IMG/VR virus record: IMGVR_UViG_3300046786_000604
Location: 1 to 12,363 of that record
Length of the DNA: 12,363 nucleotides
Strand: one strand, 5' to 3'
DNA from: a virus
Taxonomy: Duplodnaviria; Heunggongvirae; Uroviricota; Caudoviricetes
The notes under the pieces are model-generated. The model searched no databases, was not told where the DNA came from, and saw only the letters and a list, made by a program, of their open reading frames with translations. Below are positions 503 through 5,829 of this stretch, piece after piece (position 1 is the first letter of the stretch; each line of letters starts with the position of its first letter). The position numbers and the translations under genes are program-made.

Positions 503-733
503 TTATTCCTTTATAAAAAGGGGAGTACGTCCATCGATAGTTTTATCTAACCTTAATCCTTCAGTCTTAGTTAACAGAGACTCTAACTGGTCAGAGTGGT
601 GTTTTAAAATTGAAAAACTAAATCTATCTGTTCCACGTTGATCTGGAGTTTGGTATTGTATAGAATAATATACAAATTCTTCATTGTTATCTAATTGGTC
701 TTTAAATACTTCTCTTAATTCTTCAATGTTCAT
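503..733 (-). CDS. Hypothetical protein, 76 aa
   Basis: ORF packed between neighbours with AAGGA SD upstream of the ATG; no recognisable motif. Confidence 0.75.
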   Translation of the reverse strand: MNIEELREVFKDQLDNNEEFVYYSIQYQTPDQRGTDRFSFSILKHHSDQLESLLTKTEGLRLDKTIDGRTPLFIKE

Positions 734-744
734 TTTTATATTCC

Positions 745-1707
745 TTAAAGCTTACAAGATTCGCAATCACTTTCATCATCTTCATTGATACCACTTGGTA
801 ATTCAACTTCATCTTCTGATTTTGAACCAGCTTTATCTATAAGTGAGTAATAAAAACCTTTTAATCCCCACTTATGTCCTAACATCAAATTCTTCGCAAT
901 TAATGTTCCTGGTACTTTTCTATCTGGAAAGTGTTTAGGCGAATAAAATGAATTTACACTGATTGATTGGTCAACATATGCTGCTAATACCGCTGCAGTT
1001 TTTAAATACCCGATGCAATCAGTTTGATCCCACATTAACTGATATTTGTTTTTCAGTTTATGGTATTCTGGAACAACTTGTGTTAATGATGCGGCTTTTG
1101 ATTCTTTAGTTTGAATTAACTGCATTGGCATTTCAATACCATTGGTGCTATTAATAACAACTGAACTAGATTCAACTGGAGCAATTGCCATTTGTGTAGC
1201 ATTACGAACACCGCTAACTTTCATTCTTTCACGTAATTGTTCCCAAGGCAGTTCTGGTGTAAAATCGGTTAATTCATTTACGCCTTCTGCACGTAGTTCC
1301 CACGGGAATATACCTTGACCATATCGGGTTTTTGCACTATCTAAACATGGTCCACGTTCTTCGGCTAGTTCAACACTAGATTCAGTTAAGTAAAATGCCT
1401 GATGTTCCATCCAGCTCTTAACTTCGGCTAACATTTCAGGCTCACCGTATTTCAACCCGCGTTTAGCTGCCCAGTACGCCAAGTTGGTAATACCAATCCC
1501 AATAGGACGAATTTCATCGTTTGATAGTTTAGAGTGGATTGACAAGAAGTCTTGATAATCTAAGATATTGTTTAGGCTACGATGAAGGATACGGCAAGCT
1601 CTTCTCATATCTTCTGGATTTCTGCAATTACCCCAATTGATTGAACCTAAGGTACACAGTGCTATTTTTGGAACTTTTCTAGTGCATTCTTTTTTAATTA
1701 TTCTCAT
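745..1707 (-). CDS. nrdA: Class Ia ribonucleotide reductase alpha subunit, C-terminal fragment (320 aa incl. 14-aa N-terminal tail)
   Basis: IALCTLGSINWG (E. coli C462-equivalent), RPIGIGITN, APVESSS/NSTNGIE, GFYYS (Y730/Y731 equivalents), C-terminal CESCKL cysteine pair. Start set at ATG 1707 (MRIIKKE) after GGAAATAGAA; the track start at 1737 is in frame but has no SD. Confidence 0.95.
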   Translation of the reverse strand: MRIIKKECTRKVPKIALCTLGSINWGNCRNPEDMRRACRILHRSLNNILDYQDFLSIHSKLSNDEIRPIGIGITNLAYWAAKRGLKYGEPEMLAEVKSWMEHQAFYLTESSVELAEERGPCLDSAKTRYGQGIFPWELRAEGVNELTDFTPELPWEQLRERMKVSGVRNATQMAIAPVESSSVVINSTNGIEMPMQLIQTKESKAASLTQVVPEYHKLKNKYQLMWDQTDCIGYLKTAAVLAAYVDQSISVNSFYSPKHFPDRKVPGTLIAKNLMLGHKWGLKGFYYSLIDKAGSKSEDEVELPSGINEDDESDCESCKL

Positions 1708-2401
1708 TTCTATTTCCATATAATTTACAATTATCAAAATGATATTGAGTCATTCTACTGATCCCACCTGTTTTATTACAATGTGGGCATGTTACTTTTT
1801 TCATCGGCTTGCCTTTTTTAGAATTAGACATATTGATATTATTTTTTAATCTTAATTCAGGCGATTGTTCGTGTTTAAGCCACTTTTTAAAATTTGATAT
1901 ACTTATTTCTTTTCTATCTATAATTCTACATACTGTTGGTTGTTTTCTTCCTTTAAGAGAAATACTAGTTTTAATGTTTGGAATACCTTTACGTGGACTA
2001 GGTTTTCCTTTATTATATGGTGATTTTCCTTTTCTAGCGATAGAGACCCCTAGGTTTGGAATACCTTTACGTGGACTAGGTTTTCCTTTATTGTGAGAAA
2101 TAAAACTTATCCCTAATGTTGTAAACTTACCGTCACCATTATGCATGTTATAACTTCGTATATCATTTTTGGCATCTAAAAGCGTTAAAAGCTCTGTTTC
2201 TAAATTAACCATATCGATAGGTTCACCAATTGCTAAAATCGTTCTCTCCCATTCATCATAATTTTTCTTAATCAATGGTTTTACAATTTTACTAGAACAT
2301 ATATAACCATCATGTGGGTGACAATTTTTTCTAGTGCGTGACCCTAAGTACCATCTTAGGGATACTTTATTCTTCCAAATATATACAAATGCTTGGCTCA
2401 T
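1694..2401 (-). CDS. GIY-YIG (Seg-like) homing endonuclease with NUMOD3-like repeats and C-terminal CxxC/H/C motif
   Basis: FVYIW-x8-WYLGS, conserved R, DGYICSS, E helix (NLETEL) and YN motif. Basic KGKPSPRKG repeats. C-terminal CPHC...HFDNC. Sits inside nrdA. Confidence 0.85.
   Translation of the reverse strand: MSQAFVYIWKNKVSLRWYLGSRTRKNCHPHDGYICSSKIVKPLIKKNYDEWERTILAIGEPIDMVNLETELLTLLDAKNDIRSYNMHNGDGKFTTLGISFISHNKGKPSPRKGIPNLGVSIARKGKSPYNKGKPSPRKGIPNIKTSISLKGRKQPTVCRIIDRKEISISNFKKWLKHEQSPELRLKNNINMSNSKKGKPMKKVTCPHCNKTGGISRMTQYHFDNCKLYGNRNENN
1976..2092. repeat. Perfect 39-bp direct repeat, 2 copies (1976-2014 and 2054-2092)
   Basis: gtttggaatacctttacgtggactaggttttcctttatt occurs twice, 78 bp (26 codons) apart; encodes NKGKPSPRKGIPN. 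Confidence 0.95.
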
Positions 2402-3927
2402 AATAATAAATCTGTAATATCATCATCTTCTGTCAATTCCCTAACTTTCTTCATATCACCGTTAGACAATAAAACTTTGTGTTGCCCTGGAATTAATACT
2501 TCAGTACCATCGTCTAAACTCAGTTTAAACTCTCCTTCATCATCTAATGATTTTAATGGAACTGTTGGCAAATTTATCTCTAAACATAAATTTGATTGAT
2601 ATATTGTGTGATGTTCTGGATCAAATGGTCCTTGCTTCATTACATTATCAATGAATACTAAGTAGATTCTACCGGTATCGGTTCTTTCTTTTAGAATACC
2701 GCCTTTGAATACTTCTTCAGCACTCATTGTTTTTTTACGTAAGTCTTTACGTTTTTCGTATTTTACGTAGAGTTCTTCAAATTTTGTGGTATTTTGATAG
2801 AATGCTTCGTATAAATCTGGTACTTCGTTCGGATCAAAGAAAGTAATGTTTCCTTTATCCTTAAAACGTCTCCAAAAGAATGCTGATAATACAACACCAT
2901 AATCCATATGGCGAACACGAGTTTCTTCAGTTCCTTGATTGTTTTTAAGTACAATCAGGTCATCGAATTGATAATGCCAAATTGGGTAAAATACTGTTGC
3001 CGATGCATTTCTAACACCACCTTGCGAGCACGAACGTAGATCACCAAACCATTTTTTAAGGAATGGAATGAATCCGGTATGCATAATTTCACCATTTCTA
3101 ATAGGTGAACCTAGTGGGCGCAATCTACCAACTTCTAAGCCTATGCCAGCACGTTTACTGGCATATTTTGCCATCATTTCGCCAGAAGCAAATATAGAGT
3201 CAAGATCGTCATCGCTCCGTATAAGGACGCAGCTAGAAAATTGTTTTGTTGGAGTTCCAAGCCCAGCAAGAACAGGAGTAGCAAGAGTGAATAGACCATC
3301 GGACGCAGCATTATAATATTCCTTTATGTATTTCATTCTAGCAGAATTTGGTTCTTCTTTATGAAAGACCGTAGCTGCAGCAACCATATATCTAACTTGT
3401 GGAGTTTCGTATACTTCTTTGGTAGCACGATTTCTTAATAGATATTTTTCTATTAACTGTTCGATTGCTGCATAAGAATATTGTTCGTCTTTATCATGGT
3501 CAATGAACGAGTCCATTTTATTCCATTCATCTTCTGAATACCAATCTAGAAGTTCTGGGGTATAAAGTCCTATTTCTATATTTTTCTTTACGATGTCATA
3601 AAGGTTTGGTGGTTGATATTGTCCATATACATCTTTACGAAGCATTGATAACCGTTGTTTACCTGCCACAAATTGATAATTTGTATGACCGATATCAGGA
3701 TTGGCTTCTATGTCAATAAGATTAACTATTGCACGTAATGTAATTTCATCGATTTCTTTGGTCGTAATGCCATCATAATAATGCGGTTGACTTTCGATTT
3801 CAATCATTGACTGGCTAACATCAGCGATACCGCTACAAACTTTAGCGATTTGATGCTGCCATTTTTCTAGGTTTAATGGTTCTTTAGTACCATTTCTTTT
3901 GATTACTGTTATTTTATTCATATCCAT
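2398..3927 (-). CDS. nrdA: Class Ia ribonucleotide reductase alpha subunit, N-terminal fragment with ATP cone (about 509 aa incl. 44-aa C-terminal tail)
   Basis: VIKRNGTKEPL ATP cone, ETPQ, LATPVLAGLGT, FSSCVL (C225-equivalent), SQGGVRNASA, QSNLCLEI (N437/C439/E441 equivalents at 2578-2592). Start probably 3927 or 3921 rather than 4020. The TGA stop overlaps the endonuclease ATG (ATGA). Confidence 0.95.
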   Translation of the reverse strand: MDMNKITVIKRNGTKEPLNLEKWQHQIAKVCSGIADVSQSMIEIESQPHYYDGITTKEIDEITLRAIVNLIDIEANPDIGHTNYQFVAGKQRLSMLRKDVYGQYQPPNLYDIVKKNIEIGLYTPELLDWYSEDEWNKMDSFIDHDKDEQYSYAAIEQLIEKYLLRNRATKEVYETPQVRYMVAAATVFHKEEPNSARMKYIKEYYNAASDGLFTLATPVLAGLGTPTKQFSSCVLIRSDDDLDSIFASGEMMAKYASKRAGIGLEVGRLRPLGSPIRNGEIMHTGFIPFLKKWFGDLRSCSQGGVRNASATVFYPIWHYQFDDLIVLKNNQGTEETRVRHMDYGVVLSAFFWRRFKDKGNITFFDPNEVPDLYEAFYQNTTKFEELYVKYEKRKDLRKKTMSAEEVFKGGILKERTDTGRIYLVFIDNVMKQGPFDPEHHTIYQSNLCLEINLPTVPLKSLDDEGEFKLSLDDGTEVLIPGQHKVLLSNGDMKKVRELTEDDDITDLLL

Positions 3928-3976
3928 ATGATGTGTACTCTCAATCCGTATTACTATATTAATTCTGTTTAGGTAG

Positions 3977-3984
3977 TATTTAGT
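3977..3984 (-). promoter_or_regulatory. Possible late-type promoter box ACTAAATA upstream of nrdA
   Basis: Same TAAATA core as in front of the structural genes, about 50 nt before the nrdA start; could be chance in AT-rich DNA. Confidence 0.35.
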
Positions 3985-4017
3985 GGGTTGGATTGATGTG
4001 TGAAAAATTTTGTAAGT

Positions 4018-4065
4018 CATTGAAATAGAACAGAATCTTATAAAAAGACGCTGTACTATTCAATG
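4018..4065 (-). other. Imperfect 48-nt stem-loop in the nrdA 5' leader
   Basis: cattgaaatag (4018-4028) pairs with ctattcaatg (4056-4065) with one bulge; inner pairings are acag/ctgt and tctt/aaga. Confidence 0.55.
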
Positions 4066-4075
4066 AATTATAGAT

Positions 4076-4104
4076 ATTATACACTACATAACAAGAAATG
4101 TCTA
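4076..4104 (-). promoter_or_regulatory. Sigma70-type promoter for the nrdA operon
   Basis: TAGACA (4104-4099), 17-bp spacer, TATAAT (4081-4076), in the intergenic gap. Confidence 0.75.
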
Positions 4105-4113
4105 GTGAAATTT

Positions 4114-5829
4114 TTAACTAATTGCTGTGTAGGTATAATGTAGATACCCAGCATCATTTGTAAGAAGGTTGGTATACGCAATGCTTAACGAATAGGGATC
4201 CTCACCATTATCAAGTACCCCACCATTGATATCTAAGAAAGACACTTGGAAATCTAGTAATAGTGAGTTATCAATCGTGCCTGTACAGTTATATTCATCA
4301 GTTAATTGAATATGTTTAGCATCAATATCTACTACTATTGATAAAACCCCAGCTCTAGTTTCGTTGTTTAAATTTTTATAATAATATTTGATATTATAGG
4401 TAATAGAACCATCTGGTACCCCATCCACTGAACCTGCTAATGGTAATCTAAATAAATCAGTACTATAAGTATTATATCCTAAAGAAACTCTGGTGGTTCC
4501 AAATGAACTATATTCACAATGACCACTAACTTCTGGAATATATGCATAGGTAAGTGATGGATGTGATGATATTGCGGTGCGGTCTGATTTAATATTGTTA
4601 ATAACATTTCCGTAATATCTAGAATAAATTTGTGGGAATTCTTGATTATTTACATTCCCAAAATTGTTTCCTACATTGTATAATTCTATATTAGAAACAT
4701 TATTACCTGTACCTAAATCTATGAATATGGCATTTTGTTGCACACTATAGAACTTGTAATTATTGATTATAGTATCTCTTGAACCAAATTGTTGACCAAT
4801 ATTTACACCATCTGAATTAAAACCTAACACAAACCCTTGCTTTACATTAGTGACATATCCTTCATCAAACAAATTATTTATAATATCATTATCTGAATAT
4901 ACTCCGTAGTTGAAACCTGAAATATATATATTTTTAAAAATATTACGTTCACATGTTACAAGTGAGGTAAAACCATATAATGCAATGCCTTTACTTAATT
5001 TGGTAATATCACCGACCCATCCTCCTTGTAGATTTAAATCTTCGAACGTACTATCCCTAACTGACTCTAATTGCAATGCAACTTGATCAATTGATGAAGT
5101 TATAATTGATAATCCTTTAAATAATATGTATCGTGGTTGATTTGTATATTGGACATCGTTGGAATCGTTTGTAAAGTTACCATCTAGATTTGTATCTATT
5201 AATCTACTACCCATCCCTGCTGGATTGCCAGGGGTAGATAAATCATTGACAAATCTAACTACTGGAGTGGATGATGTATGACTGATTATAGTTTTACTAG
5301 AACCTTCCCCTATGATCGTAGCGTAGCTTGGAATGAATAATGTCCCAGTAATTTTATATGTACCTGCTGGTATTTTTAATGTAATTCTTTTATATGAATT
5401 ATTATATGCTGTCCCTGCTGTATTCAAAAATAATTGATCAATTGCTCGTTGTAATGAGATAGTATCATCTACGATGCCGTCACCAATTACCCCAAAATCT
5501 TTTGTTGAAACATAATCATCTAAACGGTCTTGTACAGTACGATATACTGGATGATTAGAATCAATCCCAGTATGAATATTGGTATTATTGTCTTTATAAA
5601 CTCGTTGGAAAATATTAAGAAGATCTGGATTGTTATCCAAATCTTTATATGTTAATAGTTTTGTATTACCAACTGATGGAGCTCCTTCAGAAACTGAACC
5701 ATTTCCAATATATAACTCTTGACTATCAACACACCATGCTAATTCACCACTAGCTAATTGTGGAAGTCCTGTCCCTTCTAGTTTTTTACCACGTCTTTGT
5801 TGGATTCTTGAGATTTGTACAACTGCCAT
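4114..5829 (-). CDS. Virion structural protein (tail fibre/spike-like) with pectate-lyase-like beta-helix
   Basis: N-terminal QISRIQQRRG...LPQLASGELAW...QELYIGNG attachment-type segment, then VSTKDFGVIGDGIVDDTISLQRAID and IPAGTYKITGTL (Pectate_lyase_3-type start), then Asn/Gly-rich beta-helix rungs. GAGG SD. Confidence 0.75.
   Translation of the reverse strand: MAVVQISRIQQRRGKKLEGTGLPQLASGELAWCVDSQELYIGNGSVSEGAPSVGNTKLLTYKDLDNNPDLLNIFQRVYKDNNTNIHTGIDSNHPVYRTVQDRLDDYVSTKDFGVIGDGIVDDTISLQRAIDQLFLNTAGTAYNNSYKRITLKIPAGTYKITGTLFIPSYATIIGEGSSKTIISHTSSTPVVRFVNDLSTPGNPAGMGSRLIDTNLDGNFTNDSNDVQYTNQPRYILFKGLSIITSSIDQVALQLESVRDSTFEDLNLQGGWVGDITKLSKGIALYGFTSLVTCERNIFKNIYISGFNYGVYSDNDIINNLFDEGYVTNVKQGFVLGFNSDGVNIGQQFGSRDTIINNYKFYSVQQNAIFIDLGTGNNVSNIELYNVGNNFGNVNNQEFPQIYSRYYGNVINNIKSDRTAISSHPSLTYAYIPEVSGHCEYSSFGTTRVSLGYNTYSTDLFRLPLAGSVDGVPDGSITYNIKYYYKNLNNETRAGVLSIVVDIDAKHIQLTDEYNCTGTIDNSLLLDFQVSFLDINGGVLDNGEDPYSLSIAYTNLLTNDAGYLHYTYTAIS

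Follow-up and report, generated by a model that had tools for sequence, protein, structure and literature searches.

The window analysed here, a 12,363-nucleotide stretch of a Caudoviricetes virus genome, carries on its minus strand a class Ia nrdA that, read directly from the sequence, is divided into an N gene (2398-3927) and a C gene (745-1707). The two are adjacent open reading frames on the same strand with a free-standing homing endonuclease gene between them, which is the host-gene arrangement of a fractured gene (Table 1). The N-gene start at 3927 was chosen after a database copy of 509 aa (P0004). The native part of the N-fragment contains the ATP-cone, the all-alpha domain and the first half of the barrel, includes the active-site motifs FSSC and SNLCLEI, and ends in ...SLDDEGE, after which the non-RNR residues of the N tail follow (P0001:498-540). 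The 320-aa C-fragment begins at the ATG at 1707-1705 with MRIIKKECTRKVPK and continues into IALCTL, which holds the second active-site Cys and opens a native part that also contains the YY pair and, C-terminally, the redox motif CESC before the stop at 745-747. The break falls in a loop that has the thiyl-radical Cys/Glu motif (SNLCLEI) before it and the following active-site Cys (IALCTL) after it, between the residues equivalent to C439/E441 and C462, with non-native tails on both pieces. The last 14 nt of the endonuclease gene are shared with the C gene. Pfam gave no match for the endonuclease. On visual inspection it has an N-terminal motif, VYIWKN..YLGS, that resembles GIY-YIG. A megablast of the locus against phage genomes returned no match.

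Table 1. Features of the split nrdA locus in the window
Feature	Coordinates	Strand	Evidence
nrdA N-fragment, native part	2530..3927	-	Pfam PF03477, PF00317, PF02867 positions 1-220/523
N tail, 43 aa, acidic, Hint-derived by homology	2401..2529	-	PF14890 positions 51-92/155, E 0.011
ATGA overlap, N-gene stop (TGA) / endonuclease start (ATG)	2398..2401	-	Direct sequence reading
Homing endonuclease gene, free-standing, 235 aa	1694..2401	-	PHROG 314 'homing endonuclease', E 2.9e-10
C tail, 14 aa, basic, MRIIKKECTRKVPK	1666..1707	-	Conserved in ~100 clusters
nrdA C-fragment, native part	745..1665	-	Pfam PF02867 positions 223-522/523; translation

In an alignment with the uninterrupted NrdA of Xanthomonas phage X1, the N piece stops at residue 458 and the C piece picks up at residue 461, indicating that the native sequence is complete and that both tails are insertions. 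As K14 of the C tail is aligned with the native Arg461 of X1 NrdA, the foreign part of this tail amounts to at most 13 aa. Unsplit close relatives read ...LDDxxGRIALCTL... with neither tail present; the tails are missing from uninterrupted homologues and hence do not represent an ordinary NrdA loop, a case that the earlier note had named as fatal to its proposal. That note had described a 44-aa N tail foreign to RNR, and such a tail does exist, but only 43 aa are foreign, the 44th residue being a native Glu at 2530-2532. Its charge counts were reproduced, with 11 D/E and 5 K/R in the N tail and 6 K/R and one E in the 14 aa of the C tail counted from the C-gene ATG.

The residues required for protein splicing are absent, as the earlier note had also claimed. 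There is no block A, as only native NrdA sequence lies upstream of the N tail, and the first tail position, where a Cys or Ser would be sought, is an invariant Phe. Within block B, His17 is invariant and aligns with the block-B His, while the Thr position is Pro in most tails. Blocks F/G with their His-Asn are absent from the 14-aa C tail, which ends in VPK and is followed by Ile or Val (Ile at +1 in the window). With block A, blocks F/G and the +1 nucleophile all gone, the sequence leaves no means of linking the pieces by a peptide bond. In all 47 loci both pieces come with a start and a stop of their own, and a search of positions 600-4200 against Rfam (E <= 1) revealed no intron and no other relevant RNA.

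By sequence, the N tail is clearly what remains of a split intein, and its homologous counterpart in N-inteins is their C-terminal half, which carries block B. When a profile built from 23 tails was run with hmmsearch on 1.84 billion (1.84e9) proteins, it gave 84 matches at a library-wide E <= 1e-3, of which six were family members and 77 lay outside the family, the best intein scoring 4e-9. At least 61 of these 77 have a block-A-like motif 40-100 aa upstream, as expected for inteins, and 23 of the block-A-bearing matches end no more than 21 aa after the match, like natural split N-inteins. The alignments span 35-41 of the 43 tail positions. When ten matches were sampled and scanned with Pfam, all ten carried PF14890 or Hint; the sampled N-intein parts end at PF14890 profile position 92-93, the same as the N tail, which ends at the canonical split point as natural split N-inteins do. 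Comparison by hhalign with real inteins of the same nrdA clade gave a score of 27.5 (P 5e-5), with His placed on the block-B His, and none of 300 column shuffles reached this score. PF14890 was matched by 22 of the 23 family tails (best E 3e-4) and was the sole family-wide Pfam match; because about half of the single-sequence scans (13/23, best E 0.004) also touched Big_4, Pfam by itself is insufficient for the assignment. Homology to the Hint fold was found for the N tail alone, which corresponds to about one third of a mini-intein.

The best phmmer match of the N tail in the PDB was the DnaE intein 7qil_A (residues 58-94, E 0.12), and Foldseek with a model of the tail ranked the Npu DnaE IntN 4qfq_A first, with inteins at ranks 1-3 and recurrent in the top 50, all at E >= 0.3. 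The AF2 model of the isolated tail (pLDDT 81) did not superpose on Hint structures, VIA-align giving no Z >= 2. The 23-tail profile found only unrelated PDB sequences (E > 0.5), driven by the KVRELT motif, as it was too specific for so small a library, and tblastn with the tail gave nothing meaningful. The gapless match to DnaE inteins, from which the N tail had originally been proposed to be the second half of a split N-intein, was reproduced in the top matches of phmmer and Foldseek, and the proposal itself is supported by PF14890 and the profile search. Of the two kinds of check suggested for it, the profile searches supported a Hint relationship and the structural one yielded no significant superposition. 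The best matches are spread across many host genes, among them GyrB, PolA, RecA and UvsW, and do not single out a donor intein.

The C tail has the consensus MKI[IV]KKEC[TV]RxVP[KQ], in which position 8 is almost always Cys (or Thr). The earlier note had likened it to the starts of C-inteins; in a fixed-register BLOSUM test against seven such starts, the score of the window's tail was reached by 17-29% of background N-termini, so the likeness lies within background. Sequence does not connect the C tail with C-inteins, and a Hint origin for it is a plausible possibility.

Relatives of the window nrdA shed further light on the tails. True split inteins lie 17 aa upstream in several of them (L006, P0140, P0146, P0147, P0150, P0155), and in the L006 relatives this real intein aligns with the N tail for 42 aa with no gap, the two ends lying within 1 aa of each other. 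An origin of the N tail by simple deletion from this neighbouring site-2 split intein was rejected, since the sites are separated by 17 aa of extein on the wrong side; it is also contradicted by P0155 and P0157, where both elements occur together. The L008 relatives have a second tail type at the same nrdA site, with the polarity known from Aeromonas phage Aeh1. A search for similar tails on other host genes, which the earlier note had called for, found truncated tails on two other split phage genes, a family B DNA polymerase (L057), which has a Hint-like N tail and no C tail, and a CxxxCxxC protein without a name (L058). Positions 6-24 of the tail profile are matched by two repeat proteins, P0159 and P0191. 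P0205 and P0232 are on contigs shorter than 1 kb, whose gene context is uninformative.

The N tail shows a dN/dS of 0.115 compared with 0.108 for the adjacent enzyme core, and with dS saturated this implies protein-level purifying selection over a long divergence. Its identity is 77% versus 79% for the core, and its length is always 43 aa, with no indel in 43 codons across 29 clusters. The opposite charges of an acidic N tail and a basic C tail, pointed out earlier for the window, are conserved across the family, N tails ranging from -5 to 0 and C tails from +2 to +5. This polarity and the purifying selection give indirect support to the view that the tails may be required for holoenzyme assembly and activity. 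A complex prediction for the tails alone (N tail plus the first 30 residues of the C fragment) scored 0.14, with the mark at 0.32, and counts neither for nor against their binding. The gap between the pieces holds at least five different endonuclease groups in the relatives, in either orientation, or no gene, while the flanking tails are identical, and tails at endonuclease-free loci are equally conserved. Since the same tails accompany unrelated endonucleases or none and their divergence follows that of nrdA, the portable 'tail-HEG-tail' cassette envisaged in the earlier note does not fit this family.

The combined results suggest a model that we consider fairly probable, in which nrdA is permanently split, a vestige of a split intein persists as a tail, the pieces assemble non-covalently via their tails, and the gap is a landing site for endonuclease genes. 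Most likely, the two pieces meet after translation and stay together with no peptide bond between them. The halves of split inteins associate via charged strands located where IntN ends and IntC begins (10.1101/546465), and the N and C tails, acidic and basic respectively, would put this electrostatic capture to new use, the short C tail presumably sitting where the first strand of a C-intein belongs. Such an association would bridge the broken loop and restore the active site. Different homing endonuclease genes would come and go in the gap between the tail-coding ends, with the tails being inherited together with nrdA, and a break point, once tolerated, would become a reusable landing site for unrelated endonuclease genes.

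In Aeromonas phage Aeh1, Friedrich et al. reportedly described in 2007 'genes in pieces' of the order nrdA-a / mobE / nrdA-b. The split Aeh1 NrdA is active and its tails are required; fragments lacking them still form the a/b heterodimer, but lose activity and the dATP-driven dimerisation into a dimer of heterodimers (Crona et al. 2010, PMC3045599). If the Hint-derived tails of the window act in the same way, they would be unneeded for joining N and C and would instead promote the dimer of heterodimers or shape a composite active site. We regard this as unlikely, yet as the alternative that deserves most attention: the window is broken at the same barrel position, and a mere zipper has no need of the near-invariant Cys (or Thr) at C-tail position 8. 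Transfer from Aeh1 is uncertain, however, as its tails are of opposite polarity and without database matches (PMC3045599), and the part retained in the window is the split-intein segment that mediates fragment association (10.1101/546465). By analogy with the Aeh1 tails, which are dispensable for the heterodimer, 'clasp', the role foreseen in the earlier note, may be the wrong job description for the window tails.

It is also conceivable, if improbable, that the tails are relics without function at the protein level, kept for endonuclease target or expression signals in the DNA or because the split is too young. Tail-coding DNA indeed adjoins or overlaps the endonuclease start and stop, and endonuclease turnover at the junction suggests that the junction DNA is the homing site; against this stand the purifying selection on the protein (dN/dS 0.115, dS saturated), the indel-free 43 codons in 29 clusters and the undiminished conservation at endonuclease-free loci. 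A chance likeness of the N tail to inteins, or a convergent beta-hairpin motif of other origin, might be read from the marginal single-sequence E values (Pfam 0.011, PDB 0.12), the scores of Big_4, the matches of P0159 and P0191 to profile positions 6-24 and the missing rigid structural match (VIA-align). This is very improbable given library-wide E values down to 4e-9 against bona fide inteins, alignments over 35-41 of 43 positions that put His on the block-B His and end at natural split sites, and the failure of all 300 column shuffles to reach the score. Covalent joining of the pieces, by unconventional protein splicing or at the RNA level, could employ the conserved C-tail Cys/Thr 8 as a nucleophile, but we give it hardly any credence, as residue 1 is an invariant Phe rather than a nucleophile, a terminal Asn is missing, +1 is Ile or Val, Rfam reports no intron at E <= 1 in 600-4200, and the pieces are separately started and stopped in 47 of 47 loci.

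Split NrdA with assembly tails was previously known from a single phage, Aeh1, and the origin of the tails has been an open guess since 2010. The window family provides sequence-level evidence that a decayed split intein can be such a tail, of which the half with block B survives as far as the canonical split point, and this tail is kept in at least 47 viral contigs and ~100 protein clusters under selection as strong as that on the enzyme core. A testable path emerges, from a fractured gene with a splicing split intein to non-covalent assembly and then to loss of the catalytic parts. More broadly, and held tentatively at somewhat less than even confidence, truncated and catalytically dead split-intein halves ('hemi-Hint' tails) may be a recurrent, selectable way for essential phage genes to survive endonuclease fission, as in nrdA, L058 and L057. 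If so, they would add a third way to the two already provided by RNA splicing and protein splicing, would evolve from fractured genes once non-covalent association suffices, and would be natural, orthogonal, non-splicing heterodimerisation tags; the tails described here are candidates for small tags of this kind, of split-intein origin.

The fractured genes of Dassa et al. 2009, among them NrdA-1 to -7, have a free-standing endonuclease gene between split intein halves, and in the NrdA-2 inteins the N part is negative and the C part positive (PMC2677866). The window shares their gene order, the overlap of the endonuclease stop with the downstream piece and, as in NrdA-2, the acidic N and basic C parts. 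The inteins of those genes are complete and predicted or shown to trans-splice, whereas the window lacks about 60% of the Hint domain along with all catalytic residues, so that no complete split intein able to trans-splice is present, and the insertion point lacks the +1 nucleophile. Naturally split inteins are said to associate by 'capture and collapse', as Shah et al. reportedly put it in 2013. Like Npu DnaE and gp41-1, the window keeps the C-terminal end of IntN and possibly the start of IntC, where the charge network that starts their association lies; unlike them, its tails cannot collapse into a full Hint fold and have no chemistry. With Aeh1, compared here by its published description and not by its full sequence, the window has in common that a class Ia nrdA is broken after the Cys/Glu motif and before the following active-site Cys, that an endonuclease gene stands free between the pieces, that the tails are non-native and oppositely charged, and that splicing is lacking. 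The published Aeh1 peptides and their charge polarity are unlike those of the window: in Aeh1 the endonuclease is of the HNH type (mobE), the N tail is basic and the C tail acidic, and the window has the reverse polarity and another endonuclease. The earlier note knew of no description of the Aeh1 tails as Hint-derived and asked for this to be checked; Crona et al. 2010 had already suggested that the Aeh1 tails are possibly remnants of a degenerate intein, without evidence there, as their database searches with the tails found nothing (PMC3045599). The intein origin of the Aeh1 tails is thus speculation, whereas the N tail of the window is demonstrably derived from a Hint domain.

The nrdA gene of the window, which encodes the large subunit of ribonucleotide reductase (RNR), is split, and its N gene, the intervening endonuclease gene and the C gene all lie on the minus strand (see table). 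The active-site motifs FSSC and SNLCLEI are located in the N piece. The N gene ends in a TGA that overlaps the ATG of the 235-aa gene, the last 14 nt of which overlap the C gene. Position 3927 is the likely N-gene start, because the extension upstream of it (MTYKIFHTS...) is not conserved in relatives. The coordinates, sequences and charge counts recorded in the earlier note for the acidic N tail ending the N piece and the basic C tail opening the C piece were all correct on re-reading of the window.

Features of the split nrdA in the window and of related loci (L, loci; P, proteins or clusters)
Feature	Position	Strand	Remarks
Longest N-gene ORF, extension	3928-4020		opens 31 codons upstream of database-copy start
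N gene	3927 to 2398	-	start as in database copy P0004, 509 aa; ATP-cone, all-alpha domain, Pfam RNR barrel positions 1-220
N tail	2401-2529 (498-540 of P0001, the window N-piece ORF)	-	exactly 43 non-RNR residues after ...SLDDEGE
Endonuclease gene, 235 aa	1694-2401	-	PHROG 314 'homing endonuclease', E 2.9e-10
C gene	starts 1707	-	14-aa basic peptide, then IALCTL..., barrel positions 223-522, CESC redox tail
C-tail position 8	1684-1686		Cys nearly invariant, Thr in MKITKKETIR variants; close to active-site break
Gene between tails			235-aa type of the window
Gene between tails			258-aa type
Gene between tails			232/238-aa type; only about 37 N-terminal residues in common with the window's type
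Gene between tails			253-aa type
Gene between tails		opposite	363-aa HNH-type, PHROG 655
No gene between tails	L042 (2085-2100), L043		N-gene stop overlaps C-gene start as ATGA
Split family B DNA polymerase	L057 (2-2171)		
Split CxxxCxxC protein	L058 (3845-6929)		
Intein at NLC/C	L006:1380-5089		
Intein at ...GDLRSC	L003:2901-6035		
Second tail pair	L008:1934-5035		
Split UvsW helicase	L061:1-5558		

Both tails are insertions and not native loop. In alignments with the uninterrupted NrdA of Xanthomonas phage X1 (772 aa), the N piece extends to residue 458 and the C piece begins at 461, and close metagenomic relatives that are unsplit here read continuously ...LDDxxGRIALCTL.... With the N piece as tblastn query and 50,697 phage records as target, no alignment in the 40 records listed passed query residue 502. 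The tail segment is thus absent as an internal loop from X1, the relatives and the tblastn alignments, which disposes of the possibility, raised in the earlier note, that it is a loop of uninterrupted NrdA.

The N tail is derived from an intein (Hint) domain, as had been proposed and as Pfam, hhalign and an exhaustive profile search all indicate. Intein_splicing (PF14890) is the only Pfam family to match the window tail (E 0.011, profile positions 51-92 of 155), and it matches 22/23 family tails with a best E of 3e-4; on its own the Pfam evidence is weak, because Big_4 likewise matches 13 of the 23. In the PDB, phmmer ranked first residues 58-94 of 7qil_A, a DnaE intein (E 0.12), reproducing the gapless alignment to DnaE inteins given in the earlier note. 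Comparison of the tail profile with real inteins in relatives of the same nrdA by hhalign gave a score of 27.5 (P 5e-5) and aligned the tail His on the block-B His, while 0/300 column shuffles exceeded 16.9. We regard as decisive an exhaustive search with the tail profile (hmmsearch), in which 84 of 1.84 billion representative proteins reached a library-wide E <= 1e-3. Six of these are the tail family itself; among the other 77, at least 61 carry a block-A-like motif 40-100 aa upstream together with [TSGA]xxH inside the match, and 23 of those stop no more than 21 aa past the match, like natural split N-inteins. The best intein E-values were 4e-9 (P0162), 4e-8 and 5e-8. Ten sampled proteins, with host genes including GyrB, PolA, RecA and UvsW, all carry PF14890 or Hint in Pfam (8/10 above gathering score), and where these are split, the intein portion stops at PF14890 position 92-93, exactly the end of the tail match. 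The relative L006 has a true split intein 17 residues upstream of the tail site; the last 42 residues of its N-intein align gaplessly with the tail, and the two stop codons are at most 1 residue apart in the alignment.

Two giant proteins with DNGETVLLNGGDEVLL-type hairpin repeats, P0159 (4589 aa, 24 stretches) and P0191 (1621 aa, 11 stretches), match tail-profile positions 6-24 only; neither is an intein, and their matches call for caution on the first half of the profile. Structure prediction adds little. The AF2 model of the isolated tail comprises five short strands (pLDDT 81), and a Foldseek comparison ranked the Npu DnaE N-intein first, with inteins recurring through the top 50, but at E >= 0.3 throughout, and VIA-align of the model gave no Z >= 2.

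The likeness of the C tail to a C-intein start, also put forward in the earlier note, is visible but does not rise above background. The tail occupies the C-intein start position, is basic with K alternating with hydrophobic residues, and its opening resembles that of the C-inteins in related split systems (MIKIKKI..., MKITRITKI...); in a fixed-register test against C-intein starts, however, 17-29% of background N-termini scored as high as the window C tail. A Hint origin of the C tail is plausible and, in our judgement, slightly on the probable side. C-tail variants with the ending ...EGR or ...PGGR suggest a foreign part of only about 10 residues and a partial duplication of the native loop, with a copy on either side.

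All catalytic residues of splicing have been lost, in agreement with the first reading of the sequence. Block A is absent from the N tail, the first residue of which is an invariant Phe, and the block-B Thr position is mostly Pro; blocks F/G and the terminal His-Asn are absent, and the +1 residue is Ile or Val. As an Rfam search also detected no intron, what is now known of splicing chemistry excludes covalent rejoining of the pieces.

A word search recovered the N tail in 29 clusters, always as 43 aa with no indel and at a mean column identity of 83%, and it occurs in 47 IMG/VR loci; the C tail (consensus MKI[IV]KKEC[TV]RxVP[KQ]) is found in about 100 clusters. Over the 10 locus pairs in which dS was usable, the N tail had a dN/dS of 0.115 and the 100 codons preceding it 0.108, with mean identities of 77 and 79%, respectively. 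Divergence of the tails tracks that of the core (Spearman 0.64 and 0.58 for N and C tails, respectively, the pairs not being independent), and their net charges are complementary, ranging from -5 to 0 in N tails and from +2 to +5 in C tails. Together, the dN/dS, the tracking of divergence and the steady charge indicate that the tails are under protein-level purifying selection and inherited with nrdA.

In gp41-1, a second C2-related Hint unit spans the IntN end and the IntC start, and a charge network between the IntN-end and IntC-start strands is held to initiate fragment association (10.1101/546465); NrdA-2 split inteins have the same charge polarity as the window tails (PMC2677866). The acidic N tail and basic C tail would pair as split inteins do in the capture step, and this pairing would keep both barrel halves together and close the loop beside the active site. 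The main rival explanation is that the tails may act instead at the level of a dimer of heterodimers. It draws on Aeromonas phage Aeh1, whose split NrdA is active in a tail-dependent manner and whose tails are dispensable for the a/b heterodimer but required for the dimer of heterodimers (PMC3045599).

The 'tail-HEG-tail cassette' of the earlier note is unfit for the nrdA tail family, where the same tails flank differing endonuclease genes or nothing. The ATGA overlap in L042 and L043 is presumed to be the empty site receiving the various endonuclease genes, and the break, being tolerated, is most readily understood as a landing site where one endonuclease gene replaces another. Over a longer time scale the tails may still have been portable, because similar truncated tails, which it had been suggested to seek beside endonuclease genes in other host genes, were found on other split genes at L057 and L058. 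The L058 protein comprises a complete intein, 31 aa of extein and a 40-aa Hint-like tail with neither block A nor the His, 45% identical to the nrdA tail (17/38 aligned positions, manual count); an HNH-type gene follows, and the C piece opens MIVKKVER, near the nrdA C-tail variant MKIVKKVCTR. The L057 polymerase is cut within its catalytic GD/TDS motif; its N piece carries a terminal Hint-like tail (about 40 aa) in which Ala replaces the block-B His, a NUMOD3 endonuclease gene follows, and the C piece opens directly at (M)TDSVFY with no C tail.

No donor intein for the N tail could be named. It is unlikely to have arisen by simple decay of the split intein at the neighbouring site 2, since the 17-aa extein between the sites is on the wrong side, and such decay is further disfavoured by the coexistence of both elements in P0157 and P0155. 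Our guess is that the middle portion of a fractured-gene cassette was captured illegitimately at a nearby break. P0155 is a 96-aa mini-gene of C-intein, 19 aa of extein and tail, so in some phages NrdA is made from at least three gene pieces.

Several other inteins were observed in these loci. In L006, P0140, P0146, P0147, P0150, P0155 and P0157, an intein lies directly after the thiyl-radical Cys (NLC/C), at a point that precedes the tail site by 17 aa; it is canonically split around a PHROG 655 HNH-type endonuclease gene, and contiguous in P0013, P0016 and P0157. A second nrdA cut, after ...GDLRSC in L003, L004 and L005, holds an atypically split intein in which a 364-aa ORF separates an N-intein of only about 19 aa (CVTPDTWVEVL...) from a C-intein of about 135 aa, and this intein is uninterrupted in P0012. 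In L061 a canonical split intein, the C-intein of which starts MKITRITKI..., interrupts the UvsW helicase; its 85-nt gap has no endonuclease gene, and a family B polymerase at this locus is likewise fragmented. The L063 version of this UvsW intein has, between its halves, a 292-aa ORF with a weak match to a Tn7 TnsA-like N-terminal domain.

A literature search for Hint homology of such tails found no paper showing it, and a split nrdA with a Hint-derived tail is of clear interest for the intein, homing-endonuclease and RNR fields. Already known are fractured genes with true split inteins (PMC2677866) and the split nrdA with tails of Aeh1, for whose tails descent from a degenerate intein has been proposed, although database searches with them gave no match (PMC3045599). 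At nearly the same break as in the window, L008, L009, P0141, P0142, P0151 and P0152 have an unrelated second tail pair, a basic N tail of about 33 aa (MNPERKLIRVKK...) and an acidic C tail of about 27-30 aa (MNELYEEI...YEYYEVDE...), separated by two small ORFs with no recognisable endonuclease. These tails have the same polarity as reported for Aeh1, and are likened to it by polarity only.
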